This document shows positions 1-30,988 of a stretch of 64,000 bases of DNA, piece by piece (the first letter of the stretch is position 1; every line of letters begins with the position of its first letter). A program made the position numbers and the translations under genes. Under the pieces are notes generated by a model. The model did no database searches, was not told the origin of the DNA, and was given only the letters and a program-made list of their open reading frames with translations. The DNA lies in contig OZ241867.1 of assembly GCA_965203175.1 (NCBI GenBank), positions 4,450,733 through 4,514,732 of the forward strand, written 5' to 3'. The DNA is from Candidatus Latescibacterota bacterium. GTDB taxonomy: Bacteria; Latescibacterota; UBA2968; UBA8231.

Positions 1-5
1 CCTTT

Positions 6-434
6 ATGGTCAGCGAGGGGGAAGTGCGGGGCCTGTGCGGATTCTTGGCCGCTTACTTCAGTGCCTATAGCGAGGAGTCCATCGGCGACTTCTATGCGGA
101 GAAGGTTCAGTTAGTCGAGGAAGCCGGCGAGCGCGGGCCGGAGTACGCCGTGCAGCTTTTGCTGTGGCTGGCGCCGTTCGACATGGGGGTGAGTCAGTTC
201 ATGCAGCTCGAATTTTTGCCCACCGAAGTCAAATCCGTATATACAGTGGAGATTTACATTCAGCGGATCAGCGGTCAGGACACCTTCTGGCAGCGGGTCA
301 ACCACCGCTTTATCAATGGGTTGAGGAAAGAGTTCCTGCTATGGCACACCCTCGCCACAGAGTCCAAGGCCCACCACCGCGGAGTCGCCGAGAAGATGTT
401 GGCCGAGTCCGCAGAAGTTGAGCAGGTGGAATGA
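6..434 (+). CDS. hypothetical protein; frame is open to the window edge so it may be 5'-truncated
   Basis: 142-aa ORF with no motif I recognise. Its stop overlaps the next start (ATGA at 431-434), suggesting translational coupling. Confidence 0.45.
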   Translation: MVSEGEVRGLCGFLAAYFSAYSEESIGDFYAEKVQLVEEAGERGPEYAVQLLLWLAPFDMGVSQFMQLEFLPTEVKSVYTVEIYIQRISGQDTFWQRVNHRFINGLRKEFLLWHTLATESKAHHRGVAEKMLAESAEVEQVE

Positions 435-3400
435 TGGAAGCGTTTTTTCAAAGACTGTCTGCGTCTTTTCAGCAGCTATTTGATCGCAAACAAAAAAAGG
501 AGCGCCAGTGGGCCGAGGTCGATGAATACCGCGACTTGCTCCAAGCCCCCGACCGCTTTGAGGAGGGCTTTACAAGCCGTACCATTATCGGTGTGCTCTT
601 CATCTCGCTGATTATGACCCCGGGCGAGATGTTTCTCGGGCTGTACGCGGGTATCGATATAGGCGTGGCGGCGCAATGGGTGACGGTGATCCTCTTTTTA
701 GAGGTCTCGAAGCGATCATTTGCCGCGCTCAGGCGCCAAGAGATTTACCTGTTAGTGTACGTCGCCGGTGCCTTGATCGCCGGCGGAGAGGGCGCGTTCC
801 TCGGCTTGCTCTGGCGTCAGTACTTTGTGACCTCGGCCGAAGCCGAGCTATTCGGGATAGCGCACCGCTTGCCGTGGTGGTGGGCACCCGGACCCGATTC
901 GGAGGCCATTGCCGAGCGCACCTTTATTCATCGCGACTGGCTGGCTCCGATCCTGCTGTTGGTACTCGGGACGATCATGAGCCGCATCGCTTGGTTTACG
1001 ACCGGCTACATGCTCTTCCGGCTCGTTTCTGACCGCGAGCAATTGCCCTTTCCCACCGCGCCCATGTCGGCGTTGAGCGCTATGGCACTGGCCGAGGATT
1101 CGGGTGCCGAGCGAGAGACGTGGAAGTGGCCAGTGTTCAGCATTGGCGCGGTTATCGGTGCGTCATTCGGGGTCATCTATGTAGGGGTCCCGGTCATTAC
1201 CGCGATTTGGGGTTCCAAAGTGGAGATCTTGCCGATTCCCTTCTGGGAATTGAGTCCCTATTTCGGCAATATTATACAGGCTGCGCCACTGGGGATCTCC
1301 ACGAGTTTGGGGGCGGTATTCGCCGGGTTGTTCATGCCCTTCTGGGGGGTGATCGGCTCCTTTGCCGGGGTGATGCTACACACGGCCATCAGTCCCTTTC
1401 TCTACGCATGGGGCTATCTGCCGCGCTGGGAACTCGGCATGCACACCATCGAAACTACCATCGTCACTGGAATCGACTTTTGGCGCGCCTTTTCCATTGG
1501 CATTACCATCGCGGTCACCATCGTCAGCTTTCACCAGCTTTTTTCCACTGGCCGAGAAAGGCTGGCCGAATCGCAGGAGAAGCTCCGGCTCCAAGGGGCC
1601 GACCAGTCGGGGATGTGTAAGCACTCAGACTGCCTCCGCCCGGCCGAAGTGAGGGGGTACTGCTTAAAACACCTCGGCCGCGGCGATTTCAATATGTGGG
1701 TTTGCGCTTCGCTGTTTTGCGTAGCGGCGATCTATCCGATCGTGTTGGCCAAGACCTTGTTTCCCACCTTGGTCAGCACCGGCCTGTTGGTGCTTTTCGT
1801 GCTCATTGCCTTTGTCTGGGCGCCGATCATGTCCTTTGTCAGCGCCCGGCTCGACGGCTTGGTTGGCCGCAACATTTCGATCCCCTATGTCGAAGACGCC
1901 ATCCGCTTTATGACCGGCTTTCGCGGGGTCGAAATCTGGTTCGTGCCCTTTCCTACCCGCAACTTCGGCGGGAACGCCGAGCAGTTTAGGGTAGTAGAGC
2001 TGACCGGGATGAGGTTTACTAGCCTGCTTAAGGCCGAGCTCTTTATGTTGCCCATCGTCTTTGGGGTGAGTCTGATGTACTGGAGCTTCCTCTGGCGCTT
2101 GGGGCCCATTCCCTCGGAGAGCTACCCATACGCGCAAATCTATTGGCCGCTGGAGGCCTTTGACCGGGCGCTCGCCTACTCCGCCACGATGTACAACAAA
2201 ACGTGGCGCGCCGGAGAGGAGGTGGAAGGGGATATTGTGCCCAATGGCCAAGTCGTGTGGAGCCCACCCAATTTGGAGGACGGCCGTTGGTGGTACTGGC
2301 GGGTGAGAACTACTAGGGATTTTGAGGTGCCGGATCCGGTAAAGCGCGACTATGACTCTTGGTCGCAGACAGGCTACTTCTACACGGACTTCAGCGGCGG
2401 GGACGCACCATCGCCGCCGGAGGCCGCCCAGAGGATCGACGCCGAGGCGGATACTCCGTCGGATGGCCCCCAGCTACTTTGGCCTCCCAACGGCATGGCC
2501 ATTGCCACGCCGAACCCCAACTTCCAAGCTGCGATCAATTTAGCTCCGGGCGATTCGGTTGATTTCTACTTTGAAATAGATCGCCTGCCCAGCTTTGACG
2601 GCGAGGCTTTGCAACGATCCTCGGACGTGCCCTTGCTCTTTGCGGTTCTGTGGCAGGATATGCGCTTTACCGGCAACCGCAAGGACGACGACGGCGACCT
2701 CAATATCGCGGCTCTCGTCGAGGGTGTGGAGCCGGAGGGGTTAGGAGGTCAGCTTGGACTGGCCGACGGCGACCGCCTCCGTGCGATAAACGGCGTCGAA
2801 CTTCGCGTCCCGCAATGGGATACTGAGCGGATTGATCGGTATTTTACCCAGGGAGCGGACTCGGTGTTTGCCGCTTGGGAACGGGATGAGAAAACCATGC
2901 GTCGAGCCGTGGTGCGCCGGCCGGGGGAAGCACTGGGACTTGAGTTTGCGGCGGACACGTCATTCGTCGAGAGTTGGACCGAATACGACGCAGTGCGCGT
3001 CGCCACCGTAGCCGAAACCGGGCTAGGCCACCGCTTGGGCTTGCAAGCCGGCGACGACCTTATGACGATCAACGGCCAAAGCATTGAGCAGGATACGTGG
3101 CGCAGCGAGGAGGTAAGGGCCGCCTTTGCTGCGGTTGTGGAGGAGACCGCGACTACGGTGCTAGTCGAGTGGGAGCGGGATGGAGACCGGCTTCAAGGTT
3201 TGGTGGCCGATGCGTCGTCTCTCCCCCTAGGCTTGACCTATCGGGAGGGGGCCATCGAGGGCATTGACGAAGAGCTGGTCAACAACCGCGACGACGATGG
3301 CGACGGCCTGATCGACGAGGATACGCACCATCCCCTCGGCGGTAGGAAGTGGCCCATCATCATCGGCGCAGCTAGCTTCGGCTTGGCGGCGTACTTTACT

Positions 3401-3658
3401 TTGGCCTTTTTGGGAATGCCGATCTTTATGATCTGGGGATACGTCCAAAGCGTCAACGGCATTCCGCATTTTCTCATTCCACAAGTCATTGGTGCCTTGC
3501 TGGCTCGGCACTACTTCTGGAAGCGGTACGGCAAGCAACAATGGCGGCAATACGCCATGGTCTTGAGCGTGGGGTTTGGGGTTGGCATGGCCTTGGTCGG
3601 CATGTTCAGCGCGGCTTTGTCGATTATCAACAAGGCCGTTTCTTCCCTCGCCTATTGA
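431..3658 (+). CDS. 1075-aa polytopic membrane protein, OPT-transporter-like core with a ~430-aa soluble insert carrying two PDZ-like domains
   Basis: Many TM stretches at both ends. PDZ-like GLGGQLGLADGDRLRAINGVEL and GLGHRLGLQAGDDLMTINGQSI. Asp-rich DDDGDLN and DDDGDGLIDEDT. Cys/His knuckle CKHSDC..CLKH. The OPT assignment is tentative. Confidence 0.8.
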   Translation: MMEAFFQRLSASFQQLFDRKQKKERQWAEVDEYRDLLQAPDRFEEGFTSRTIIGVLFISLIMTPGEMFLGLYAGIDIGVAAQWVTVILFLEVSKRSFAALRRQEIYLLVYVAGALIAGGEGAFLGLLWRQYFVTSAEAELFGIAHRLPWWWAPGPDSEAIAERTFIHRDWLAPILLLVLGTIMSRIAWFTTGYMLFRLVSDREQLPFPTAPMSALSAMALAEDSGAERETWKWPVFSIGAVIGASFGVIYVGVPVITAIWGSKVEILPIPFWELSPYFGNIIQAAPLGISTSLGAVFAGLFMPFWGVIGSFAGVMLHTAISPFLYAWGYLPRWELGMHTIETTIVTGIDFWRAFSIGITIAVTIVSFHQLFSTGRERLAESQEKLRLQGADQSGMCKHSDCLRPAEVRGYCLKHLGRGDFNMWVCASLFCVAAIYPIVLAKTLFPTLVSTGLLVLFVLIAFVWAPIMSFVSARLDGLVGRNISIPYVEDAIRFMTGFRGVEIWFVPFPTRNFGGNAEQFRVVELTGMRFTSLLKAELFMLPIVFGVSLMYWSFLWRLGPIPSESYPYAQIYWPLEAFDRALAYSATMYNKTWRAGEEVEGDIVPNGQVVWSPPNLEDGRWWYWRVRTTRDFEVPDPVKRDYDSWSQTGYFYTDFSGGDAPSPPEAAQRIDAEADTPSDGPQLLWPPNGMAIATPNPNFQAAINLAPGDSVDFYFEIDRLPSFDGEALQRSSDVPLLFAVLWQDMRFTGNRKDDDGDLNIAALVEGVEPEGLGGQLGLADGDRLRAINGVELRVPQWDTERIDRYFTQGADSVFAAWERDEKTMRRAVVRRPGEALGLEFAADTSFVESWTEYDAVRVATVAETGLGHRLGLQAGDDLMTINGQSIEQDTWRSEEVRAAFAAVVEETATTVLVEWERDGDRLQGLVADASSLPLGLTYREGAIEGIDEELVNNRDDDGDGLIDEDTHHPLGGRKWPIIIGAASFGLAAYFTLAFLGMPIFMIWGYVQSVNGIPHFLIPQVIGALLARHYFWKRYGKQQWRQYAMVLSVGFGVGMALVGMFSAALSIINKAVSSLAY

Positions 3659-3700
3659 GGGGGTGGACAAGGTCCATTAACCCTTGTATCTTCGCCATTT

Positions 3701-4030
3701 ATGGACTTACTCGGGCGCATATTCCGCGTCGTGAGGGCGCACACTACGGCCAGCGAGCCGCGCGATGCCTACGGGCATTGGCAGCCTCCGCCTCCGCCGC
3801 CCGCACTGGCCGAAGACCCGGTACTCGCTGGGTATTACGCCAATCTGGAACTTCCCTATGGGGCGACTCTGGAGGAAGTGAAGGCGGCGTGGAAGCGGTT
3901 GATGAAGCAGTACCACCCCGACCGCCACGCCCAGGATCCGGCCAAGCGCGAGGTCGCCAACGCGCTCTGCGCCCAATTGACGCATGCCTATAAAGAGCTG
4001 GAAAGTGCGATCTTAAAGTCGCATAAGTGA
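3701..4030 (+). CDS. J-domain (DnaJ-like) protein, 109 aa
   Basis: C-terminal J-domain pattern with HPD motif (LEEVKAAWKRLMKQYHPDRH...THAYKELE). Confidence 0.8.
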   Translation: MDLLGRIFRVVRAHTTASEPRDAYGHWQPPPPPPALAEDPVLAGYYANLELPYGATLEEVKAAWKRLMKQYHPDRHAQDPAKREVANALCAQLTHAYKELESAILKSHK

Positions 4031-4063
4031 GTGAGTGCGGCGGGCCAGTATAGACACTCTGTG

Positions 4064-4092
4064 GCCGGGCGAGTAATCGCAGCCCGGTTTTT
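4064..4092 (+). terminator. rho-independent terminator candidate after the J-domain gene
   Basis: CCGGGC(4065-4070)/GCCCGG(4082-4087) stem followed by TTTTT. Confidence 0.55.
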
Positions 4093-5439
4093 GTGGTTGT
4101 CCCGTGATTCGCCTTGGAACCACCAGAGCGAATCGCTCCAGTTAGGGAGAATCTATCTATACTGGCCCCACCAATTAGGGGGCACCGAGCCTTGGAATGA
4201 CACAATATATTTCTGCCTTGCAGGCTAGAGTTCCAATCTCCGGCTAACCCGGCGTGGGGTCGAAACCCGTGGCGTCATGGCCGTTAGGCCACACGAGGCG
4301 ATCCACCTCAATCAGACCCAGCAGGCGCTACCCTGCCATGTCTGGTGCCTTATATCGTGCCGACTCGATGTCCCTAATTAAATATTACGATATGATGACT
4401 ACATATCTAATACTACGTATTCCCGACCAGTGTGCAAGTCGGTCACCAGCCCCACGTGCGTTCGGAGTAATCCAAGGGTGCGAAGCTGGGGCGAAAAGCC
4501 TAATGACGCGGCGAGCCATCCGCCAACTCTGGGCAAGGTGAAAACAGGCAGGGAGAACTAACGTGAATCTACTCAGGCGTCGTAAGATTTGACTGCCGAA
4601 ACCGAAGGCTGATACGGTAGAAGGGCCACACATGAACCCGGTTACTTTACAGATCGGCTTGGGAAACCACCATGACCCAAGGCACACCATAGGCCCCGGC
4701 GTATAGTAGGCTCCCGCCCCTGTTGTATCTCATTTATGCGGAAAAGACTAACCCCGATGAGGTCTGAAATGGGAAGGCGGTGTGCTGCCGCCCTCTCCAA
4801 TATCAGTAATCCAATCGCAAGAGCGGGCTAATTCCTCAGCGGGAAAAGGATGTGGTAAGAAGCGAAGGCCAGCCGCCGAAAGGCAAGAGGAAAAGACGAC
4901 TTGTGAAAACCCAAGAGGGAGGGGGACATGAAGATACGCTATCTTCATGTCCCCCTATCCAAAGCACAAAGAGCTACGATCAAGGATCAATCTGCTCAGA
5001 ATCGCCTTGCAGTCCATGCCTAACCATGACATCGCGCAACATAATTGCGCCGTCACGGATTAGATCACGGATTTCGGGTAAATTCCTGCCGATAGTCCGC
5101 CCAAGGCACCAACCAAGGGCAGCCCCACCAAAATCAAGAAGTCCAATGCTTGCGCTTCCACCGCAAGCATCAAAACTTCTGCGGCTATGATCGTACTTAA
5201 AACGGAAAAATCTTCCAACTGCCATTGGAAGCCATCCTTTCCAGAGCTGCCGACTTACCCACAGGAATGGGATACCATCAAAATAAACAACAATTTTGAT
5301 GGACACAAGGAATACTTGAACGTCTATAACTCGCTGGATATGCACAAATGTGCAGCACGAAAGTGAGCTGACGTGCCACAGGTTTGTCGTCCGTAGCTGC
5401 TGCAATAGAACTCTAATCGAAAGGAGATGCGGAGAGTCT

Positions 5440-7110
5440 ATGACGAGCAGACCTAAGAGATGGCGAGATTGGCGCGACATCGACTGGTGTCAAACCATGA
5501 AAGCCGTCCGAGAACTAAGGCAGCAAATCTACAGGGCTTCACAGAAAAGAGACTACAAGAAATTGCGGTCTCTGCAACGCCTGATGTTGAAAAGCCGAGC
5601 CAATGCTGAACTCAGTGTTCGGCAGGTGACTCAGATCAACACCGGGCGGAAAACTCCAGGGGTGGATGGACGGGTGGCACTAACGCCGGATGAGCGCACC
5701 GAGTTAATCAAGGACTTGCTCCAAGACCAAACTTGGAAACCTCAACCGGCCAAACGTGTGCATATCCCGAAGGCCAATGGCCAACAACGACCCTTGGGCA
5801 TCCCGACCATAGCCGACCGATGCAGGCAGGCAATGGTCAAAAATGCCCTTGAACCCGAATGGGAAGCCCGGTTTGAGCCATGTTCCTATGGTTTCAGACC
5901 GGGCAGGTCTTGCCACGACGCTATAGGCCGCATATTCCGTCTCGCACTACCTCAGAGCAAAAAGCACTGGGTAGTTGATGCGGATATAAAGGGAGCCTTT
6001 GACAATATCGACCACGACTCATTGCTTGAAGCCCTGTACGGCTTCCCTGTTAAAGACATGGTGAGGCAATGGCTCGAAGCCGGTATTTTGGACAAAGGAG
6101 TATTTGCTGAGACGGATAAGGGCACACCGCAAGGTGGTGTCCTAAGTCCGCTACTCGCAAACATAGCTCTAACCGGGATGGAAAAGGCCATAGGGGTCAA
6201 GTATCACAAGAACAAGACTCACATGACCATCAGGAGCAAGCGGGCCTTAGTGCGCTATGCTGATGACTTTGTCATCTTCGCAGAAACGCAAAAGGATGCC
6301 CGTGCAGCCCGAAATGAAATAGCTAACTGGTTGAAGGGGATAGGCTTGGAACTCTCGAAAGAGAAAACCAGAATCCGCCATGTTCAGAAAGGCTTTGACT
6401 TCTTGGGCTTCAATATTCGCCTGTATCGAGTAGAAGGCGAAAACTCTACACAGGAGAAGCTCCTGATTAAACCGAGCAGAAAATCGGTTGATGCCTTCAA
6501 AGAGCGGCTACGGATAGAATGGTCAAATCTCAAAGGCCACAACATCCACACCGTAATAAAAAGGCTCAATCCGATACTGCGAGGATGGGGCAATTATTTC
6601 CGCATGGTTGTCAGCAATGACACCTTTCAGGAAATGGACAATTTCATGTATCATCGAGAAATGCGCTACATGAAATTCACCCACCCCAATAAATCTTGGA
6701 AATGGAGACAGCGGCATTACTTCGGTCAACTGAAACACGATAGAGCCGATACGTATGTGTTTGGCGATCCCAAAACCAAACACCATCTAATTAAACTCAA
6801 TTGGATGCCCATACAGCGGCATATCCTGATTCAGCACGGAGCATCGCCGGATAATCCAGAGCTAAGCAAATACTGGCAGAAGCGTGAATTGAGAAAGGTT
6901 GAACTCCTGCCAACAAACAGACACAAGCGGATTGCTCGGAGGCAAAAGGGCAACTGCGAGGTCTGTAAAGATACCCTGTTCAGTGGAGAACAATTGCATC
7001 TTCACCACAGGATACCTAAGATTGAAGGTGGGACAGACGCTCTAAGCAATCTCGCGCTACTGCACATTACGTGCCATCAGCAAATCCACAAAAGGAGGCT
7101 GAAGAAGTAG
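5440..7110 (+). CDS. group II intron reverse transcriptase / maturase with C-terminal HNH endonuclease
   Basis: RT motifs RPLGIPTIADR, GVLSPLLANI, YADDFVIF. HNH is CEVC...HLHHRIP...CHQQIH. GGAG-rich stretch within 20 nt of ATG 5440. The 30 aa upstream in the track ORF (5350) look non-coding. Confidence 0.93.
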   Translation: MTSRPKRWRDWRDIDWCQTMKAVRELRQQIYRASQKRDYKKLRSLQRLMLKSRANAELSVRQVTQINTGRKTPGVDGRVALTPDERTELIKDLLQDQTWKPQPAKRVHIPKANGQQRPLGIPTIADRCRQAMVKNALEPEWEARFEPCSYGFRPGRSCHDAIGRIFRLALPQSKKHWVVDADIKGAFDNIDHDSLLEALYGFPVKDMVRQWLEAGILDKGVFAETDKGTPQGGVLSPLLANIALTGMEKAIGVKYHKNKTHMTIRSKRALVRYADDFVIFAETQKDARAARNEIANWLKGIGLELSKEKTRIRHVQKGFDFLGFNIRLYRVEGENSTQEKLLIKPSRKSVDAFKERLRIEWSNLKGHNIHTVIKRLNPILRGWGNYFRMVVSNDTFQEMDNFMYHREMRYMKFTHPNKSWKWRQRHYFGQLKHDRADTYVFGDPKTKHHLIKLNWMPIQRHILIQHGASPDNPELSKYWQKRELRKVELLPTNRHKRIARRQKGNCEVCKDTLFSGEQLHLHHRIPKIEGGTDALSNLALLHITCHQQIHKRRLKK

Positions 7111-7122
7111 CGCGACATGCTT

Positions 7123-7157
7123 GAGCCGTGTGCGGTGATAAGTCGCACGCACGGTTC
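7123..7157 (+). ncRNA. group II intron catalytic domain V
   Basis: GAGCCGTGTGCGGTGATAAGTCGCACGCACGGTTC closely matches the canonical domain V hairpin (AGC triad, bulge, ...ACGGUUC). Confidence 0.9.
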
Positions 7158-7238
7158 TTAGGGGGCTGGGGGCCAGCGATGGTCTCCGGCTACCCGACAG
7201 TCTCTGACGACCCATTAAACTAGCATCGGAGGAAGCTT

Positions 7239-7631
7239 ATGGCTGATTTTGCCACAGTAAAGGAGTACGTCCTCGAGTTGGGCCTTGCCATTGCCGAGGA
7301 GATTCCCGCCGAGGAAATCATCATTGTCAACGACGAAGAGCGAGGGGTACAAAACCTAGTTATTGATTGCGAGGATACGGTGTTGGTGATCGAGCAACTT
7401 ATCCTCCAGGTCGCCGCTGGGGCTGCCGGGACGTATCAGCGGATTTTGCAGATGAACCGCGACTTGGTCTTTGGTGCCTTCGTCCTCAACGAAGAAGGCG
7501 ATTCGCTGCTCTATCGCAATACGCTGGCGCTGGAGAATTTGGACTTAAACGAACTGGAAAGCACAATCAACTCCCTCAGCCTGGGCTTGGCCGAGCACGG
7601 GGAGGAATTACTGGGGTTTGCCGCCAAATAG
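7239..7631 (+). CDS. YjfI-like (DUF2170, YbjN/chaperone-fold) protein, PspA partner
   Basis: 130-aa acidic protein immediately upstream of the PspA homolog, same order as E. coli yjfI-yjfJ. GGAGG RBS before the ATG. Confidence 0.65.
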   Translation: MADFATVKEYVLELGLAIAEEIPAEEIIIVNDEERGVQNLVIDCEDTVLVIEQLILQVAAGAAGTYQRILQMNRDLVFGAFVLNEEGDSLLYRNTLALENLDLNELESTINSLSLGLAEHGEELLGFAAK

Positions 7632-7642
7632 GAGGACAGGAC

Positions 7643-8353
7643 ATGGCAGGTATATTTCAACGCTTGTTTAAGACGGGGCAGGCCGAGGCCCACGCCATTG
7701 TGGATAAGCTCGAAGACCCGATCAAGATGAGCGAGCAAGCGATCCGCGACTTAAAAAAGGACTTGCAGGAAAGTCTCAAGGCTCTGGCCGAGGTCAAGGC
7801 GATTTCCATCCGGCTCAGCCGCGAGTCCGAAGACCACCGCCGCCGCGCCGAAGACTACGAGCGCAAGGCCATGCTGCTGTTGCAAAAGGCCGAATCTGGC
7901 CAGATGGAGGAGGCTGAGGCCGACCGCTTGGCGCGCGAATCCTTGACCCGCGTCGAAGAGGCCCAAAGTCGGCACTCAGAAGCCTCCCAACAGGCCCAAG
8001 CCCAACAGGCGATGGCCGACAAGCTGCAGAGCAATGTCAACGATCTGAAGTCGAAAATCGCCTCGTACGAAAACGATCTGGTAACCCTCAAGGCGCGCAC
8101 CAAAACCGCCAACGCCACCCGCAAAATCAACCAGCACTTGGCCAACATCGACTCCAAGGGTACCACGGCCCTGCTCGAACGGATGAAGGAAAAGACCGAA
8201 GAGCAGGAAGCCCTCGCCGAAGCCTATGGCGATATGGGAGACGCGGCGACGAGCGTTGACGACGAGATCAACAAGGCCCTCGCCGACAGCAAGGGAGCCA
8301 AGGTCGATGATTCCCTGGCCCAACTCAAGGCCAGAATGAAGACGGCGAAATAA
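7643..8353 (+). CDS. pspA: PspA/IM30 (Vipp1/YjfJ) family membrane-stress protein
   Basis: MAGIFQRLFK... N-terminus and a long coiled coil typical of PspA/IM30. GGAGGA RBS at 7631-7636. The track ORF start at 7367 is rejected. Confidence 0.9.
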   Translation: MAGIFQRLFKTGQAEAHAIVDKLEDPIKMSEQAIRDLKKDLQESLKALAEVKAISIRLSRESEDHRRRAEDYERKAMLLLQKAESGQMEEAEADRLARESLTRVEEAQSRHSEASQQAQAQQAMADKLQSNVNDLKSKIASYENDLVTLKARTKTANATRKINQHLANIDSKGTTALLERMKEKTEEQEALAEAYGDMGDAATSVDDEINKALADSKGAKVDDSLAQLKARMKTAK

Positions 8354-8376
8354 GGGCTGCCGCTCACGCCCATGGG

Positions 8377-10023
8377 ATGAAGGCCCTTAGCCGCAGGCAA
8401 TTTTTCGGCGCGCTCGCCGCCGCTGGTAGCTGGGCTGCTTGGAGCGGTTGCTCGTCTGACCAGCAGCGGCCGATTCCTGGGCGGATCGTCAATGAAGGAC
8501 CGCCGCGTGGGCACCTGCTGCGCGATGTGCATTCCTGGGCAGACTTCGCCGCGGCTGAGCCTGCGTGCGATGTCGCCATTGTCGGCGGTGGGATCTCCGG
8601 CTTGGCTGCGGCGTGGAAGTTGCGTCGGTCGGGGGTGGAGCGGATTCTTCTCCTCGACCTTGGCGACCAGCTAGGGGGCACCAGTCGCAGTGGCCACTGG
8701 GGCGACCAGGCATTTCCCTGGGGCGCTCACTACATCAACATCCCTCCCGCCGAAGCCGACTGCATCCACGAAATACTGCAAGATCTAGGCGTCATCGACG
8801 GCTATGACGCGGCGAATAGGCCGATGGTCGCCGCTGGGACGATGCTGCGCTGGCCGCACGAGCGGCTCTTCTATCGGGGTCGCTGGGTCTCCGGGTTGGA
8901 CCCGTTTGTCGACGCATCGGGCCGGGAGCGCGAAGCATGGTTGCGCTTTGAAGACGAGATGCTGCGCTGGGTCTTGCACCGCGGCCGGGACGGGCGTCGG
9001 GCCTTTGCCATGCCTTTGCGCTACAGCACCGCCGATTCACGGGTGCGGCGTTTGGACCAGATCAGTATGGCCCAGTATCTCCGCGAAGAGGGATGGCATG
9101 ACGATCGGCTCCGCTGGCTGGTCGATTACGCCTGCCGCGACGACTACGGCAGCACGGCGGCCCAAGTCTCGGCGTGGGCCGGGATTCACTACTATGCCTG
9201 TCGATTCTACGACTACCGAGTACACGAAGCGTACCCAGCCCACACGCTGACGTGGCCCGAGGGCAATGGGCACCTAGTTGGGGAACTCGCTAATAGATTG
9301 GGGAAGCACGAAATAAAGCGACAATCTCTAGTGGCTCGTCTGGCCGAAGAACGGTCGCAGGTGCGACTGGGATACATCGACTTGGCGACCGGGGAAAAAC
9401 GGCAACTGACCGCTCGGGCAGTGGTGTACGCTGGCAAGCTCCACACAGCTCCTTATGCGATTGCAGACCTGCCGGATGCACAGGCCAAGGCCATGGCAAC
9501 CATCGAGTACAGCCCTTGGTTGGTCGCGGCGATTTTCCTCAAAGAGCCGCTTGTTGCCCAGCAGACTACTTGGGACAATGTCTTGTACGACAGCCCATCG
9601 CTGGGCTACGTGGTCGCCGACCATCAGCAGGGCGGTGGCCGCGTTTTGATGTACTATTGGCCCTTTGTCGACCAACTTGCGGACGCCCGGCACGCCTTGC
9701 TCGCGCAAGACCATTCATTCTGGACCGAACAGATCATGGCCGATTTGCTCCGCGTCCACCCGGAGCTAGACGACCTCGTAGAGCGCATCGATTTGTATCG
9801 CTGGGGGCACGGGATGATGCGGCCCAGTCCCGGGTCGCTATGGGGGCCGATGGCTGGTTGGCGGCAGCAGCCAATGGAGCGGATATTTTTTGCTTCGTGC
9901 GATGCGACTGGGCTGCCCCTGTGCGAAGAAGCCATATTTTCCGGTATGCTGGCGGCGGAGCAAGCTATGGACTGTCTCGGCGTGGCGTATTCTTCCTCGT
10001 TGGGAGGGCTTGCGGATGCCTAG
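8377..10023 (+). CDS. FAD-dependent amine-oxidase-like oxidoreductase, Tat-exported lipoprotein
   Basis: Twin-arginine SRRQFF plus lipobox WSGC. Dinucleotide fold DVAIVGGGISGLAAAWKL. Confidence 0.8.
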   Translation: MKALSRRQFFGALAAAGSWAAWSGCSSDQQRPIPGRIVNEGPPRGHLLRDVHSWADFAAAEPACDVAIVGGGISGLAAAWKLRRSGVERILLLDLGDQLGGTSRSGHWGDQAFPWGAHYINIPPAEADCIHEILQDLGVIDGYDAANRPMVAAGTMLRWPHERLFYRGRWVSGLDPFVDASGREREAWLRFEDEMLRWVLHRGRDGRRAFAMPLRYSTADSRVRRLDQISMAQYLREEGWHDDRLRWLVDYACRDDYGSTAAQVSAWAGIHYYACRFYDYRVHEAYPAHTLTWPEGNGHLVGELANRLGKHEIKRQSLVARLAEERSQVRLGYIDLATGEKRQLTARAVVYAGKLHTAPYAIADLPDAQAKAMATIEYSPWLVAAIFLKEPLVAQQTTWDNVLYDSPSLGYVVADHQQGGGRVLMYYWPFVDQLADARHALLAQDHSFWTEQIMADLLRVHPELDDLVERIDLYRWGHGMMRPSPGSLWGPMAGWRQQPMERIFFASCDATGLPLCEEAIFSGMLAAEQAMDCLGVAYSSSLGGLADA

Positions 10024-11536
10024 GCTGGGTGCGCTGTTTTTGCTGGTGGCCATTTTCTCGGCTGCTGTCTGCGCCATCGTCTATCAGTTGCTCATCGGCA
10101 GTGTGTCGTCCTACTTCCTCGGCAATAGCGTCGAGCAGTTTTCCTTGACCATCGGCTTTTTTCTCGCTGCGATGGGGCTTGGCTCTTGGCTTTCGCGCTT
10201 TGTCGCCGACGACTTGCTGTTGACGCGGCTAGCCCAGCTAGAGATTTGGCTGGGGCTTTTGGGTGGGGTTTCGGTTGGCGTGCTCTACGTGCTCTACGGA
10301 TACACCGACCACTTTAGGGCCGGCATGTTGGCGTTGAGCGTTGCGATTGGCGCATTGATCGGCCTAGAAGTGCCGCTGATCACCCGGCTTTTGCGCGGGC
10401 ACGGTACGCTGCGTGCGGCGTTATCGAATGTTTTGTCCCTTGATTATCTGGGGGCCTTGTTGGCTTCATTGCTCTTCCCGTACATCCTGTTGCCCTTCCT
10501 CGGCAGCCTGCACACAGCGTTGGTCGCCGGCTTGGTCAACGCCGGCCTCGGCCTCGGCGTGGTGCTTGCATTTAAGGGGGTATTGCTAGAGCAACGCGCC
10601 TTCCACTCTCTAGGGACGCAAGCGCTTGTGGTTATCGCGGTGCTTGGGGCGTTGGCTTGGCAAGGGGAAGGGTTGCGGGCGCGGTGGGAAAGCGACCTCT
10701 ACGAGGACCGCATCATCCACAGCGAGCAATCGGCCTACCAGCAAATTGTCTTGACTCGGCGCGACGATCACCTGCGGCTTTATCTCAACGGGCACTTGCA
10801 ATTCGCTTCCATTGACGAACACCGCTACCACGAGGCCCTAGTCCATCCGGCTATGGCGCTGGCTCCCTCCCGCGAAAGGGTGCTCATCATCGGGGGAGGG
10901 GACGGCCTGACGGCGCGGGAAGTGCTCAAGTACAAGGAGGTTGAGCACGTCGATTTAGTCGATCTCGACCCGGCAGTGACCCTGTTAGCCCAGCGCAACA
11001 TCTACCTGACAAGGCTCAACGACAATGCTTTAAATCGCCGCCAAGTCCGCGTGGTCAACGAAGATGGCTTTGTCTTTTTGCAACACGAGCACGTGCCGTA
11101 TGGCGCAATACTAATCGACTTACCCGATCCCCGCGAGGAGAGCTTGGCCAAGCTCTATTCGGTCGAGGCCTATAGGCTGTGTCGAAAATTGCTCAGCCCA
11201 CAAGGCGTCATGGCGACCCAAGCTTCTAGTCCATATTACGCCCGCGAGGCGTACTGGAGCATTGCCGCCGCTTTGGAGGAAGCCGGCTTTGCCGTCCACT
11301 CCTATCACTTGCACGTGCCCTCTTTTGGCGAGTGGGGGTTCCACTTGGCGGGACCCGCAGGGCTAGATCCGACAGCAGTCGCCTTTGCCGTTCCCACGCG
11401 CTATATCGACCGCCAAGTCTGGGATGCCCTCTCGGTGTTCGACGGCGATATGGCCCGCTTACCCGTGCAGGCCAACCGACTTGATAGACCGGTGCTGGCG
11501 CGTTATTATCGACGGGGTTGGGGCACTCAGTTTTGA
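10016..11536 (+). CDS. membrane-anchored spermidine/spermine synthase-like aminopropyltransferase
   Basis: About 7 N-terminal TM helices, then a SpeE-like domain (VLIIGGGDGLTAREVLKY, DLVDLDP, IDLPDP). ATG 10016 overlaps the upstream stop by 8 nt. Confidence 0.85.
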   Translation: MPRLGALFLLVAIFSAAVCAIVYQLLIGSVSSYFLGNSVEQFSLTIGFFLAAMGLGSWLSRFVADDLLLTRLAQLEIWLGLLGGVSVGVLYVLYGYTDHFRAGMLALSVAIGALIGLEVPLITRLLRGHGTLRAALSNVLSLDYLGALLASLLFPYILLPFLGSLHTALVAGLVNAGLGLGVVLAFKGVLLEQRAFHSLGTQALVVIAVLGALAWQGEGLRARWESDLYEDRIIHSEQSAYQQIVLTRRDDHLRLYLNGHLQFASIDEHRYHEALVHPAMALAPSRERVLIIGGGDGLTAREVLKYKEVEHVDLVDLDPAVTLLAQRNIYLTRLNDNALNRRQVRVVNEDGFVFLQHEHVPYGAILIDLPDPREESLAKLYSVEAYRLCRKLLSPQGVMATQASSPYYAREAYWSIAAALEEAGFAVHSYHLHVPSFGEWGFHLAGPAGLDPTAVAFAVPTRYIDRQVWDALSVFDGDMARLPVQANRLDRPVLARYYRRGWGTQF

Positions 11537-11549
11537 AAGGAAATGCCAG

Positions 11550-12098
11550 ATGGGTTTAAGGAAATGGTTCGGTGGTCGCCAAGACGAGGAAGAACCGACC
11601 TATCAGGAGTATTCGCTGAGCACCATGAAAGTGGGCTTCCTAGTCGATTACGACCTCAAAACTTGGCAAGTCACAGGCCGTGGCAGCTATGACTACGACG
11701 GCTATACTACCGAGGAATGGGAATTGCAGGCCGATGGTCAAGTGTGCTTCCTCGAACGCGCCGTAGAAGACGGCAAAGCCTATTGGACCTTGACGCGGGC
11801 GATTGGCATCGACGAGATCGATGGCGATATTGCGGCGGCGATTATCGCCGATGGCGATCCGCCTGAAGCTGTACGGTTTGAGGGTGATGAATACGTGGGG
11901 AGCACGAGCGACGCGGGTCTGTATCGCAAAGACGGCACCGATGCGGAGCGCGAGTTTGTCAACTGGTCGTTTGAAGGGGAAGAGGGCAAGGTGCTTTTTA
12001 TTAGCCAGTGGGGCGAGCGCGATTTTGCCGCGTACGCAGGCTTGGAGGTAGAAGAATACCAATTCACCGACATTTTGCCGGTGGAGGAGGGCACTTGA
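11550..12098 (+). CDS. DUF4178 / YjfK-like protein
   Basis: Pattern YQEYSL...WQV...EEWEL...YWTL typical of DUF4178. Position matches yjf-type clusters. Confidence 0.65.
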   Translation: MGLRKWFGGRQDEEEPTYQEYSLSTMKVGFLVDYDLKTWQVTGRGSYDYDGYTTEEWELQADGQVCFLERAVEDGKAYWTLTRAIGIDEIDGDIAAAIIADGDPPEAVRFEGDEYVGSTSDAGLYRKDGTDAEREFVNWSFEGEEGKVLFISQWGERDFAAYAGLEVEEYQFTDILPVEEGT

Positions 12099-12099
12099 A

Positions 12100-12804
12100 A
12101 TGGCTTGGCGCGTAGCGGCCTTAGCTCTGTGGGGCCTGATTGCCTGCGGGTCAAAAGACCCAGTGCGAGAATTGGTGCGCGACTTAGATCGCTATCCCGA
12201 GTACTCGCTGATCGTCGATGATGCCCGCATCGAAGACCCCTCGTTTTTTCCCGACTACTTCCTCCGCTTTCAGATATTAACCGCTTCGGGACAGCGCGTC
12301 GCCGGGCGCGATACCATCGTGTACGAGAAGCGCCGTACGGATTGGATGGAAGTCCGCGAAGAGACCTTCTACCGCTACGACAACTACGTTGGCATGGTTG
12401 TGGCCTCCAAGTCGCTGGACGGCCGCCGCACCGGCACTAGTCAAGCGCACCCGCCCGGTTATCAGTACGTCGGCAATCCCCAGTACGGGTTTTGGGGAGG
12501 GGGCGGGTTTTGGCAATTTTACGGCCAGTACGCGCTGATGCGCGACTTGATGGGAGGGTGGGGCGTTGGCCGGGGCGATTGGGAGGACTACCGCCGCAAT
12601 CGGGAACGGGGCCGCACGTACTACGGGCCGGTGAAAGACGGCCGGCCCACCTTTGGGTCGCGCGGTTCGCAGACCCAAAAGACGCGACCGCAATTCTACC
12701 AGCGTCAGGCAAGCCGCCGCCAGGCCTTTAGTGGCCAGGTCAAAAACCGCATGGGCCGCACCACCTCCGGGTGGGGACGCGGTTCCTCGCGCTTTGGAAA
12801 ATAG
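12100..12804 (+). CDS. YjfM-like (DUF1190) lipoprotein with Gly/Arg-rich tail
   Basis: Lipobox LIAC. FWQFYGQYALMRDLMGG and the C-terminal GWGRGSSRFG resemble E. coli YjfM segments. Confidence 0.6.
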   Translation: MAWRVAALALWGLIACGSKDPVRELVRDLDRYPEYSLIVDDARIEDPSFFPDYFLRFQILTASGQRVAGRDTIVYEKRRTDWMEVREETFYRYDNYVGMVVASKSLDGRRTGTSQAHPPGYQYVGNPQYGFWGGGGFWQFYGQYALMRDLMGGWGVGRGDWEDYRRNRERGRTYYGPVKDGRPTFGSRGSQTQKTRPQFYQRQASRRQAFSGQVKNRMGRTTSGWGRGSSRFGK

Positions 12805-12813
12805 GGGGAACCA

Positions 12814-13656
12814 GTGGATACTTTAATGACTATGGCTCAGACCCTAGTCTATCTCTTAGAGGCTTTCGTCCTGCTCTTTGTTGCCAAGCAGGCCTATGCC
12901 CGGGTTTTTCGCCGGGTCAATCTCAAGGACGAACTCTACGGCCGAAACAACCACGCGATGGCCGTTGCGGTGGGTGGTTATTTCTTTGGGATTTGCCTAG
13001 CGCTGGGGGGGGCGTTGAGCGGCCCTTCGCTCGGCTGGCAAGCCGACCTGATTGGCATCGCCCAGTACGGCCTCTTGGCAATTGTCTTGATGCTCGTCGC
13101 CGGTGTGCTCTGCGAGCGAGTGCTTCTACCTCACTTCAATAACCGCAAGGAGGTCGTCGAGGATCAGAATATGGGGACGGCCTTTGTCGAGGCGGGGATG
13201 CACATTGCCAATGGCTTGATTGTTCTGGCTATCGTGCAGGGCGAGGGGCCCCTGTGGAGCGGCGTGGCCTTCTGGCTATTGGCTCAAGTGGTGCTAATAG
13301 TGGCCGGGCTGCTCTACGAGTGGATTACCCCGCATTCGGTTCACAGCGAACTAGAGCGCGATAATGCCGCAGTTGGCTTGGCGTTTGGCGGCGTGTTGGT
13401 AGGCATGGGCAACATCGTCAGCATCGCCGTGGCCGGAGACTACGCAGGGTGGCTCATCGGCCTCAAAACCTTTGGCATGGATGCGGTCTTTGGTTTTGTC
13501 GCGCTCTACGCCATCCACAAGTTGACTGATGTGCTTCTAGCTCCCAAAGTGAGCTTGGGTGCCGAACAGATAGAGGAGCAGCCGAATGTGGGGGCCGGGC
13601 TGATAGAGGCCTTCGGCTACGTGGGTGGATCGACCCTAATCGTCTGGATTTTCTGA
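12814..13656 (+). CDS. YjfL-like membrane protein with four DUF350 repeats
   Basis: Four repeats of the DUF350 pattern (e.g. LKDELYGRNNHAMAVAVGG, VHSELERDNAAVGLAFGG). Confidence 0.75.
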   Translation: MDTLMTMAQTLVYLLEAFVLLFVAKQAYARVFRRVNLKDELYGRNNHAMAVAVGGYFFGICLALGGALSGPSLGWQADLIGIAQYGLLAIVLMLVAGVLCERVLLPHFNNRKEVVEDQNMGTAFVEAGMHIANGLIVLAIVQGEGPLWSGVAFWLLAQVVLIVAGLLYEWITPHSVHSELERDNAAVGLAFGGVLVGMGNIVSIAVAGDYAGWLIGLKTFGMDAVFGFVALYAIHKLTDVLLAPKVSLGAEQIEEQPNVGAGLIEAFGYVGGSTLIVWIF

Positions 13657-14670
13657 ACTATCCCGTCGGCTCCGCTGCCATTGCCACAGCAGAGTTGGAC
13701 CACCGACGAAGACATAGGTCAGAGTTGCTAAAGCATGGGTCAACGTAGCGCAGGCCAAAGCGGTGGCAAGGGGCACCGTATAGAGGCGGTGCATGGCCTC
13801 ACCGAAGAGGAGGTGATACGAACCGATCGCCCCAGGCGTCGGAACAATCACTCCTATAGACGATATGGCCATGATCACCAGCGCGGCGGCGGCGTCGAGG
13901 TCGTATGTTTGGTGCAAGCCCATGCCGATAAAAGCCGCGTAGACAATGAACACGTAGGCCGCGTTGAGCAGGATTGAGCTAACTAGGATTTCAAAATACG
14001 CCGTCGGCTGTTGCCGCAGGGCGGAAAGCCCGCCGATGAAGGTTTCGATGATTTCGAGGACCCGCTCGCCGCGTCCCCAAGCGATCCGCGTGAGCAGCGG
14101 ACGCATTCCAGCCAAAATTTTTTCCCGATAAACCGATACCAAAACCAAGGCGCTCAGCGCGATCAAGCAGCCGGCTAGGGCCAACAGACCGATGGTGTCC
14201 CGATCTGCATTGACCGGCATCCAAAGCACGGGCAGGGCAATATCTACATAGACGATGAGCCAGAACAAGACGATGAGCCAAAACAGATCTAGAATGCGCT
14301 CCACCACGATCGTGGCCATTAGGGCGCTGATGCTCGCCCCGGTGGTCCACTTGAGGCTGACGCACCGCAAGACCTCGCCTGAGCGCGGCACGACCACATT
14401 GGCTGCATAGCATATAGCTAGGGCAAGCGACGCGTTGAGGTTGTTCACTTGCGGCGCAAAAGGACGCATCAGGACCATCCAGCGCCAAGCCCGCAATACC
14501 AAGGTCCCCAGCGTTGCGACGCACATGACAGCGGCCCAAACCGGCGAAATACCGGTCATGGCATCCCAGAGTTCCCCGCGGTTTATCCCCTCAAAGGCCC
14601 AATAAATAAAAAGCCCCATCAAGCCTAGGCTTAGCCCATACTGGAGGATTTGTTTCAGTATTTTGTGCAT
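13636..14670 (-). CDS. UPF0104 / lysyl-PG-synthase-TM (flippase-like) family membrane protein
   Basis: About 8 TM helices. The N-terminal ...LRAWRWMVLMRPF pattern is typical of the family. Convergent 21-nt overlap with the DUF350 gene. Confidence 0.7.
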   Translation of the reverse strand: MHKILKQILQYGLSLGLMGLFIYWAFEGINRGELWDAMTGISPVWAAVMCVATLGTLVLRAWRWMVLMRPFAPQVNNLNASLALAICYAANVVVPRSGEVLRCVSLKWTTGASISALMATIVVERILDLFWLIVLFWLIVYVDIALPVLWMPVNADRDTIGLLALAGCLIALSALVLVSVYREKILAGMRPLLTRIAWGRGERVLEIIETFIGGLSALRQQPTAYFEILVSSILLNAAYVFIVYAAFIGMGLHQTYDLDAAAALVIMAISSIGVIVPTPGAIGSYHLLFGEAMHRLYTVPLATALACATLTHALATLTYVFVGGPTLLWQWQRSRRDSSENPDD

Positions 14671-14758
14671 CGCACTGGCAAACGCAAAACAGGGGATCTG
14701 ACGATCCCCTGGTGCATGGCGGAAGGAGTTTGAATAGGCTGGGTAGGTTTGTGCAAGC

Positions 14759-30681: not shown

Positions 30682-30758
30682 GGGCTAATAGCTCAGCTGG
30701 ATAGAGCGCCGGTCTCCGGAACCGGAGGTCCCAGGTTCGAATCCTGGTTAGCTCACCA
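30682..30758 (+). tRNA. tRNA-Arg (CCG)
   Basis: Full cloverleaf drawn by hand. Anticodon loop CTCCGGA. CCA encoded. Confidence 0.92.
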
Positions 30759-30791
30759 TTTTGTCGCCACAGTATGGTCGGATAATTAAGT

Positions 30792-30869
30792 CGGGGTGTG
30801 GCGCAGCCCGGCTAGCGCGCTTCCTTGGGGTGGAAGAGGTCGCTGGTTCAAATCCAGTCACCCCGACCA
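30792..30869 (+). tRNA. tRNA-Pro (GGG)
   Basis: CGGGGTG acceptor stem. Anticodon loop TTGGGGT. CCA encoded. Confidence 0.92.
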
Positions 30870-30910
30870 TTTTTTAGTAGTGTAGAATCATTGCTTTTGC
30901 TCGTCCATGT

Positions 30911-30988
30911 CGGGGTGTAGCGCAGCCCGGCTAGCGCACCTGCTTCGGGAGCAGGGGGTCGCCGGTTCAAATCCGGCCACCCCGACCA
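30911..30988 (+). tRNA. tRNA-Pro (CGG)
   Basis: CGGGGTG acceptor stem. Anticodon loop TTCGGGA. CCA encoded. Confidence 0.92.

Follow-up and report, generated by a model that had tools for sequence, protein, structure and literature searches.

A conserved PspA operon with a J-domain gene, a putative membrane-fused aminopropyltransferase and a predicted Tat-exported flavin amine oxidase in a Latescibacterota-like bacterium

The window analysed here, a 64-kb stretch of DNA from a Latescibacterota-like bacterium, contains an operon of eight genes on a single strand, encoding in this order a J-domain protein, a CesT/Tir-like chaperone, a PspA/IM30 protein of the ESCRT-III superfamily, a flavin amine oxidase or dehydrogenase, an aminopropyltransferase fused to seven transmembrane (7TM) segments, a DUF4178 protein, a lipoprotein and a double DUF350 membrane protein. 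An earlier annotation of this DNA (the original prediction) had joined the PspA gene operonically to genes for a membrane aminopropyltransferase and for a flavin amine oxidase exported by twin-arginine translocation (Tat), and this linkage held, as did the coordinates and the tight or overlapping spacing given for eight open reading frames (ORFs), from the chaperone gene to a convergent gene behind the operon. The start assigned to the cluster, position 7239, was too late, as the J-domain gene opens the operon at position 3701 and is split by an intron. The gaps between the chaperone gene and the DUF350 gene are 11, 23, -8, 13, 1 and 9 nt, all on one strand, with the oxidase and transferase genes sharing an overlap of 8 nt. 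Hidden Markov models (HMMs) confirmed the labels PspA/IM30, amine oxidase, SpeE-like transferase, DUF4178 and, for the convergent gene, UPF0104.

Across 57 species-level genomes with the labels of five phyla the gene arrangement recurs in 54–57, so it is conserved far beyond chance and bears out the synteny anticipated for related genomes. A profile of the 7TM transferase served to scan a genome collection, and of the 455 relatives found the best 80 loci were used; these best 80 were mostly metagenome-assembled genomes (MAGs) labelled Latescibacterota and 94–95% identical to the window, with Gemmatimonadota, Acidobacteriota, Handelsmanbacteria, Planctomycetota and Nitrospirota as the other labels. 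HMMs built from six curated clusters were run on the six-frame ORFs of all loci, and components were counted in the 57 species-level genomes or loci with full flanks. PspA and DUF350 were present in all 57, the CesT-like chaperone and DUF4178 in 56 each, the lipoprotein in 55, the oxidase in 54 and the J-domain gene in 52. The oxidase was missing only from a divergent Latescibacterota locus (L080) and from Nitrospirota, gene order there being different as well. The same cluster was also present in a MAG labelled Gemmatimonas phototrophica (L038).

Two further genes join the cluster in part of these genomes, namely that for an RCK-type K+ channel (30/57) and that for S-adenosylmethionine decarboxylase (AdoMetDC, 23/57). 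The channel gene and a class-1 AdoMetDC gene were seen in L004 (15500–16908), L076–L079, L085, L086 and the Acidobacteriota loci L044–L072. In loci labelled Gemmatimonadota or Latescibacterota both lie downstream on the same strand, and in the Acidobacteriota the channel gene is upstream and the AdoMetDC gene downstream, both on the opposite strand, while the clade of the window lacks both near the cluster.

A second scan, of metagenomes with the oxidase profile, yielded homologues at 36–42% identity and 22 loci flanked on each side by 2 kb or more. The 7TM transferase adjoins the oxidase in 20 of these 22, mostly in the reversed order of transferase then oxidase, and PspA is nearby in only three. 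Pfam and HMM searches of one such locus (L102) gave a Band_7/SPFH protein, AdoMetDC, a zinc ribbon with DUF4178, the 7TM transferase and the oxidase, with DUF350 not detected, and in a second locus (L139), where the upstream gene encodes an alpha/beta-hydrolase and not Band-7, the zinc ribbon with DUF4178 is joined by DUF350, the transferase and the oxidase. These operons share with the window DUF350, the 7TM aminopropyltransferase and the Tat oxidase, along with DUF4178, and differ in that SPFH/Band-7 replaces the J-CesT-PspA genes, the transferase precedes the oxidase, DUF4178 is fused to a zinc ribbon, AdoMetDC is encoded, and no lipoprotein like that of the window was detected. Since loci found from the oxidase side keep this set of genes with either Band-7 or J-CesT-PspA, the system has a conserved core of DUF350, 7TM transferase and oxidase, usually with DUF4178 and AdoMetDC, to which alternative scaffold modules are attached.

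The J-domain gene is divided into exon 1 (3701–4004, + strand) and exon 2 (7199–7218, + strand), the latter comprising the last 6 codons plus the stop codon. Exon 1 was located by tblastn, and is 86.5% identical to its intron-less orthologue in L001 (OZ241362), a genome about 90% identical to that of the window. The blastn comparison with L001 breaks exactly at 4004/7199, with window positions 1–4004 corresponding to L001 up to 8821 and the window from 7199 onward continuing at L001 8822, which places the insertion point 7 codons before the stop of the gene. The 3,194-nt insert (4005–7198, + strand) starts with GTGCG at 4005, carries an ORF for a reverse transcriptase/maturase/HNH protein (5350–7110, + strand, with RVT_1, RVT_N, GIIM and HNH domains), and ends in a match to domain V/VI of Rfam RF00029 (Intron_gpII; 7121–7198, 55.9 bits, gathering score 40). 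When 4004 is joined to 7199, the C-terminus of L001 is recovered exactly, ending in KELEKSLTTH, and the predicted spliced protein of 107 aa has a DnaJ domain by Pfam (E 5.5e-10, 39.6 bits, cut-off 27.8) with the HPD motif in the sequence KQYHPDRH. From its 5′ motif, domain V/VI, maturase ORF and restoration of the exons, the insert is classified as a group II intron; a search of the window and of the fetched loci L001–L087 gave no further copy. An unspliced J-protein would end in ELESAILKSHK rather than ELEKSLTTH.

In the 52 full-flank genomes that have it, the J-domain gene lies directly upstream of CesT/PspA, and the J-CesT-PspA trio stays together even in L129 and L166, where it runs opposite to the transferase-oxidase pair. 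There is a precedent in the chloroplast, where the J-protein CDJ2 acts with HSP70B to remodel VIPP1, an IM30 polymer, so that a dedicated J-protein hands a polymer of the IM30/PspA family to an Hsp70, which serves both its assembly and its disassembly. The position of an HPD-containing J-protein ahead of CesT-PspA in more than 50 genomes likewise points to DnaK as the remodeller of PspA, to which the J-protein may recruit it. This analogy is drawn from operon structure only, and unlike CDJ2 the bacterial protein has just 107 aa and no demonstrated homology to CDJ2 beyond the J-domain.

The chaperone gene (7239–7631, + strand, 130 aa) had been labelled DUF2170/YjfI-like, which was not borne out, as the Pfam scan gave CesT_Tir_1 (PF22550, E 4.4e-45) and YbjN (E 7.4e-08), with DUF2170 unmatched. 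It is 11 nt away from the adjacent PspA gene (7643–8353, + strand, 236 aa; PspA_IM30, E 2.9e-43), and its product is a predicted partner of PspA. This PspA falls under the equivalog cut-off of the classical protein (TIGR02977, 57 bits against 243), and no PspB, PspC or PspF family was matched among the neighbouring ORFs scanned, so that a classical PspF-ABC system was rejected. Its N-terminal motif MAGIFQRLFKTG is conserved (7643–7690). Short conserved basic-aromatic N-termini also occur in the J-protein (MDLLxRIFxxxRA, 3701–3745) and in the DUF4178 protein (MxxRKWFGG, 11550–11580), while E. coli YjfK starts with MSGFFQRLF, and the N-termini of J, PspA and DUF4178 may be shared membrane-targeting or co-assembly helices.

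The oxidase gene (8377–10023, + strand, 548 aa) encodes a protein with matches to Amino_oxidase (residues 73–530, 46.4 bits against a cut-off of 19.8) and NAD_binding_8, and with an N-terminal GGGISG sequence that fits the GxGxxG motif for FAD. Its N-terminus, MKALSRRQFFGALAAAGSWAAWSGC, consists of a twin-arginine motif, a hydrophobic region and a cysteine (SRRQFF...WSGC). The two arginines are present in 95 of 120 close homologues, the others looking N-terminally shortened, and in 61 of 65 distant ones, and a cysteine follows the hydrophobic region in most of the full-length homologues inspected, although the strict lipobox pattern is found in only 45/120. The protein is therefore a predicted Tat-dependent, exported lipoprotein. 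Its AlphaFold2 (AF2) model (pLDDT 88, pTM 0.89) established membership of the monoamine oxidase/polyamine oxidase (MAO/PAO) fold family, with Foldseek matches at E 1e-25 to 1e-22, TM-scores of 0.6–0.8 and 16–21% identity. The nearest structures were a putrescine-bound MAO from Thermoanaerobacterales, the spermidine dehydrogenase SpdH, putrescine oxidase, MAO-B, protoporphyrinogen oxidase and NicA2, and the best profile match in the PDB was SpdH (E 6e-13, N-terminal region). The window's enzyme thus shares its fold with Pseudomonas aeruginosa SpdH and Pseudomonas putida NicA2, with which it is just 16–17% identical, and it shows no sign of a haem site. NicA2 is Tat-exported, and its electron acceptor is cytochrome c rather than O2.

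The transferase gene (10016–11536, + strand, 506 aa) encodes a protein which scores 593 bits with the NCBIfam model NF002956 'polyamine aminopropyltransferase' (cut-off 472), matches Spermine_synth over residues 268–442, and also passes the cut-off of NF037959 'fused MFS/spermidine synthase' (47 bits against 40). Invariant in 44 sequences are Y241-Q242, Y271-H272-E273, G293-G294-G295-D296-G297, D316/D318, D350, D368 and D371-P372, and the motifs YQ, YHE, GGGDG and D-x-x-D-P correspond, in an alignment to 7xif, to the motifs for catalysis and for binding decarboxylated S-adenosylmethionine (dcAdoMet). Retention of GGGDG implies use of dcAdoMet and aminopropyl transfer, so the protein is a putative aminopropyltransferase by family membership, with transfer to a polyamine acceptor predicted. 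The closest structures, at 30–33% identity, are the Thermus thermophilus triamine/agmatine aminopropyltransferase (1uir, Foldseek root-mean-square deviation of about 2.2 Å), Pyrobaculum calidifontis SpeE and thermospermine synthase, and the AF2 model matched structures of the SpeE domain only. The membrane domain contains the invariant polar residues E76, E118, D143, Y144 and N175, which would fit binding of a cation.

Hydropathy gave seven hydrophobic segments, and the number of lysines and arginines per loop is 8.2–9.0 in loops 2, 4 and 6 against 1.0–2.3 in loops 1, 3 and 5, in both the close and the distant subfamily, while the segment after TM7 is acidic. As distant homologues carry an arginine or lysine in loop 5 (PxLGLxRT), this loop appears to be a real turn, and seven TM segments together with the charge bias predict a non-cytoplasmic catalytic domain. 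The module had been described as facing the periplasm, which fits the signal sequences of the oxidase and the lipoprotein, and for the transferase is plausible from charge bias. A similar architecture is known from the fungal methyltransferase NHMT (Aspergillus AN4663), in which about 215 aa of 7TM precede a spermidine-synthase-like domain, and which methylates secreted proteins in the endoplasmic reticulum (ER) and needs its TM domain. NHMT differs from the bacterial protein in that isoleucine replaces the acidic residue of GxG(D/E)G and a methyl group is transferred.

The three remaining genes of the operon also encode recognisable protein types. The product of the DUF4178 gene (11550–12098, + strand, 182 aa; E 3.4e-15, 56.8 bits against 25) lacks a signal peptide, TM segment or hydrophobic segment and is predicted to be cytoplasmic, and a sequence search gave no meaningful match in the PDB; its DUF4178 label was correct, but the likeness proposed to YjfK was not, since E. 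coli YjfK belongs to DUF2491. The lipoprotein gene (12100–12804, + strand, 234 aa, lipobox LIAC) matched no Pfam or NCBIfam family, DUF1190 included, so that the lipoprotein assignment stands while the label YjfM-like does not, YjfM being a DUF1190 protein. An alignment showed an aromatic and glycine-rich conserved core, QAHPPGYQYVGNPQYGFWGGGGFWQFYGQYALM, followed by a variable, basic low-complexity tail rich in serine, glycine and arginine, and all 73 orthologues (L008–L087) end in Gly-Lys (window C-terminus at 12799–12801). This C-terminal lysine resembles that of Braun lipoprotein, which is cross-linked to peptidoglycan, and could be a modification site. The last gene (12814–13656, + strand, 280 aa) contains two stretches of the 133-position DUF350 model (E 1.2e-46, about 8 TM segments) and is about 31% identical to E. 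coli YjfL over 70 aa; the family had been named correctly, but the count of four copies is obtained only with an older, shorter Pfam model.

Three classes of CesT/Tir-PspA operon were recently described by Ravi et al. (2024, mSystems; PMC11237479), who proposed that such operons monitor polyamines or aminopropylation. Their second group, exemplified by Shewanella oneidensis SO_3765/AAN56746, comprises the CesT/Tir-PspA dyad, a 7TM-spermine synthase, an 8TM DUF350 protein, the Ctha_1186 lipoprotein and DUF4178, all of which have counterparts in the window, including a lipoprotein with a low-complexity tail. The string 'LipoSIG+Ctha_1186+Low-comp' in their supplement matches the architecture of the lipoprotein described above, which is thus probably their Ctha_1186 plus low-complexity lipoprotein; Pfam and NCBIfam hold no model for Ctha_1186. 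The Shewanella operon differs in gene order, in lacking the amine oxidase and J-domain genes and in having a ribbon-helix-helix (RHH) regulator at its end, and its chaperone is listed as CesT_Tir-DUF2170, compared with CesT_Tir_1 in the window. AdoMetDC and polyamine oxidase are mentioned by Ravi et al. (PMC11237479) in related Band-7 variants, the type recovered here as L102 and L139, but their text and supplement contain no J-domain/DnaJ gene, and no oxidase in the second group. The cluster is a widespread version of this second group which adds a Tat oxidase and a J-protein; the operon type has been published, this version of it has not.

The original prediction had instead taken E. coli yjfIJKLMC as the closest relative, with YjfC exchanged for a synthase and an oxidase. 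As the labels of the chaperone, DUF4178 and lipoprotein genes were wrong in this respect, the closest known relative is the second group and not the yjf operon, which Ravi et al. (PMC11237479) place in their third. The yjf operon resembles that of the window in having a protein of the CesT superfamily followed by one of the PspA family, a DUF350 protein, a lipoprotein and a polyamine-linked enzyme. It differs in that these are DUF2170, DUF2491, a 4TM DUF350, DUF1190 and the GSP_synth ATP-grasp protein YjfC, against CesT_Tir_1, DUF4178, an 8TM DUF350, a Ctha_1186-like lipoprotein, a 7TM-SpeE protein and the oxidase in the window. In pairwise comparison only PspA with YjfJ (25% identity) and the DUF350 protein with YjfL were detectable as related; the chaperone, DUF4178 protein and lipoprotein did not match YjfI, YjfK and YjfM in BLASTP or phmmer, with hhalign probabilities below 3% from shallow profiles of 5–6 sequences, and tblastn (E≤0.1) gave no match to YjfC in the window. 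The E. coli genes yjfIJKL are upregulated in heat-adapted and heat-evolved strains.

The convergent gene behind the operon (13636–14670, - strand, 344 aa) overlaps the DUF350 gene by 21 nt and encodes a flippase-like membrane protein of the UPF0104/LPG_synthase_TM family (PF03706, E 5.8e-31; TIGR00374, 54 bits against a cut-off of 43.2). A homologue is found in 29 of the 57 full-flank loci (25/29 Latescibacterota, 3/5 Gemmatimonadota and 0/20 Acidobacteriota) and keeps its place beside the cluster even where a gene for the K+ channel has been inserted. Some lineages have it as a conserved neighbour, and it is a possible member of the system. A scan for promoters and terminators, in which counts were no better than chance, gave a promoter-like site 5′ of the J-domain gene (3664–3692) and a terminator-like hairpin (14690–14711, - strand) which follows an APS (adenosine 5′-phosphosulfate) kinase gene; as this hairpin is just upstream of the convergent gene, it suggests that the latter is transcribed on its own. 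Upstream of the operon, on the same strand and tightly spaced, lies a gene for a 1,075-aa PDZ protein (431–3658), which in L001 is preceded by genes for a DUF6785 protein and a large FtsX-like permease (1–8478), and a Handelsmanbacteria locus (L006, 1–8467) has at the same position DUF6785, an FtsX-like permease and a large protein without Pfam match. The DUF6785 and FtsX-like genes are not at this place in other phyla, and these upstream genes may be a lineage-specific extension of the transcription unit. Three tandem tRNA genes (Rfam) are located at 30682–30985 (+ strand) of the window.

We propose, with a probability of about one half, that the operon functions in envelope maintenance, with an aminopropylated product made at the membrane and processed by the periplasmic flavoenzyme, and with a chaperone-controlled PspA on the cytoplasmic face. 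The membrane-embedded transferase would add an aminopropyl group from dcAdoMet to a presumed acceptor amine at or in the membrane, a step proposed because many relatives encode AdoMetDC in the cluster, and because acidic residues are conserved in the TM domain. The likely flux is towards the periplasmic side, where the product would be oxidised by the Tat-exported flavoenzyme, with a presumed electron acceptor, for turnover, editing or removal. PspA would stabilise or repair the membrane from the cytoplasmic face, its assembly state being set by the CesT-like chaperone and by DnaK, which the dedicated J-protein would recruit.

Several points weigh against this proposal. The oxidase and the J-domain gene are absent from some relatives (L080, Nitrospirota and Shewanella), and are therefore accessory to the core, and tblastn found no AdoMetDC gene in the 64-kb window. 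As the oxidase is so distant from any characterised enzyme (16–21% identity), its substrate class is a guess. In contrast to the 7TM topology from hydropathy and charge bias, AF2 drew residues 132–185 of the transferase as one unbroken helix (pTM 0.61), and such a six-helix model would put the catalytic domain in the cytoplasm, for which the fact that dcAdoMet is a cytoplasmic metabolite also argues. In 2019 work attributed to Li and colleagues, fusions of a major facilitator superfamily (MFS) domain to spermidine synthase, clustered with class 1b AdoMetDC and DUF350, reportedly made no spermidine in E. coli, and a non-polyamine acceptor is said to have been proposed. Those clusters resemble the window's operon in tying a membrane-fused spermidine-synthase-like enzyme to DUF350, and to the AdoMetDC of many relatives, while oxidase, PspA and J-protein were reportedly outside that study. 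Finally, as had been stated originally, no biochemistry has been demonstrated for this kind of cluster.

The topology of the transferase bears directly on a variant of the proposal in which its catalytic domain is periplasmic, the 7TM domain conducts dcAdoMet or the acceptor, and the target is not a free polyamine but an envelope component, for example the head group of a lipid or an amine on a protein, perhaps the invariant C-terminal lysine of the lipoprotein, with the oxidase as eraser or editor. The charge bias of even over odd loops in two subfamilies, the acidic segment after TM7 and the basic residue marking loop 5 as a real turn all speak for it, as do the conserved periplasmic partners (the oxidase, and the lipoprotein with its 73/73 Gly-Lys ends), the reported lack of spermidine from the related MFS fusions, and fungal NHMT, which has the same architecture, depends on its TM domain and acts on secreted proteins in the ER. 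We nevertheless consider it unlikely, since no bacterial enzyme that uses AdoMet or dcAdoMet in the periplasm is known to us, the six helices of the AF2 model would place the domain in the cytoplasm, Band-7-type clusters keep the transferase-oxidase pair without the lipoprotein, and the bacterial-fungal likeness is one of architecture. If true, the operon would be a write/erase system for cationic modification of the envelope, coupled to PspA repair and DnaK. The score above the NF002956 equivalog cut-off, the canonical motifs, the polyamine synthases as closest structures and the resemblance of the oxidase to putrescine oxidase and SpdH would also suit ordinary polyamine metabolism, with a membrane-anchored spermidine, spermine or thermospermine synthase, a catabolic oxidase, and PspA and the other proteins as uncoupled neighbours. 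This is doubtful, because the transferase never occurs without its fused, conserved and polar 7TM domain, the oxidase always carries a Tat signal that takes it away from the cytoplasmic pool, and the pair is always embedded with PspA/CesT or Band-7, plus DUF350 and DUF4178, across phyla.

Orthology to yjfIJKLMC, with the ATP-grasp protein YjfC replaced by synthase and oxidase, would explain the common logic of CesT-superfamily protein, PspA, DUF350, lipoprotein and polyamine enzyme, and the detectable similarity of PspA to YjfJ and of DUF350 to YjfL. Ravi et al. (PMC11237479) moreover class YjfI/DUF2170 in the CesT/Tir superfamily, a kinship which negatives from shallow profiles leave possible. 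Such orthology is improbable given the different families (CesT_Tir_1 against DUF2170, DUF4178 against DUF2491, and no DUF1190), the negative profile comparisons, the lack of a YjfC-like gene in the window, and the separation of the groups by Ravi et al. (PMC11237479), each with its own conserved gene set. Lastly, PspA might support export of the flavoenzyme by relieving membrane stress from Tat, unconnected to polyamine chemistry, as two studies that a later paper cites (DeLisa 2004; Lo & Theg 2012) reported better Tat export with VIPP1/PspA, and the Tat motif of the oxidase is conserved. The CesT-PspA dyad accompanies the 7TM transferase where the oxidase is absent (L080, Nitrospirota, Shewanella), and the oxidase accompanies Band-7 where PspA is absent, and as dyad and oxidase each occur without the other we rejected this as the main logic of the operon and regard it as very improbable.

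The envelope-maintenance proposal is open to experiment, and since the cluster is present in the MAG labelled Gemmatimonas phototrophica, a species with strains in culture, such work may be possible without the uncultured Latescibacterota. The J-protein ahead of CesT-PspA makes testable what disassembles or remodels bacterial PspA/IM30 polymers. For the membrane-fused spermidine-synthase-like enzymes, the pairing with a periplasmic oxidase and the predicted orientation narrow the search for the acceptor to envelope-exposed products. The repeated wiring of polyamine chemistry to membrane scaffolds, whether PspA or Band-7, likewise becomes a testable question.

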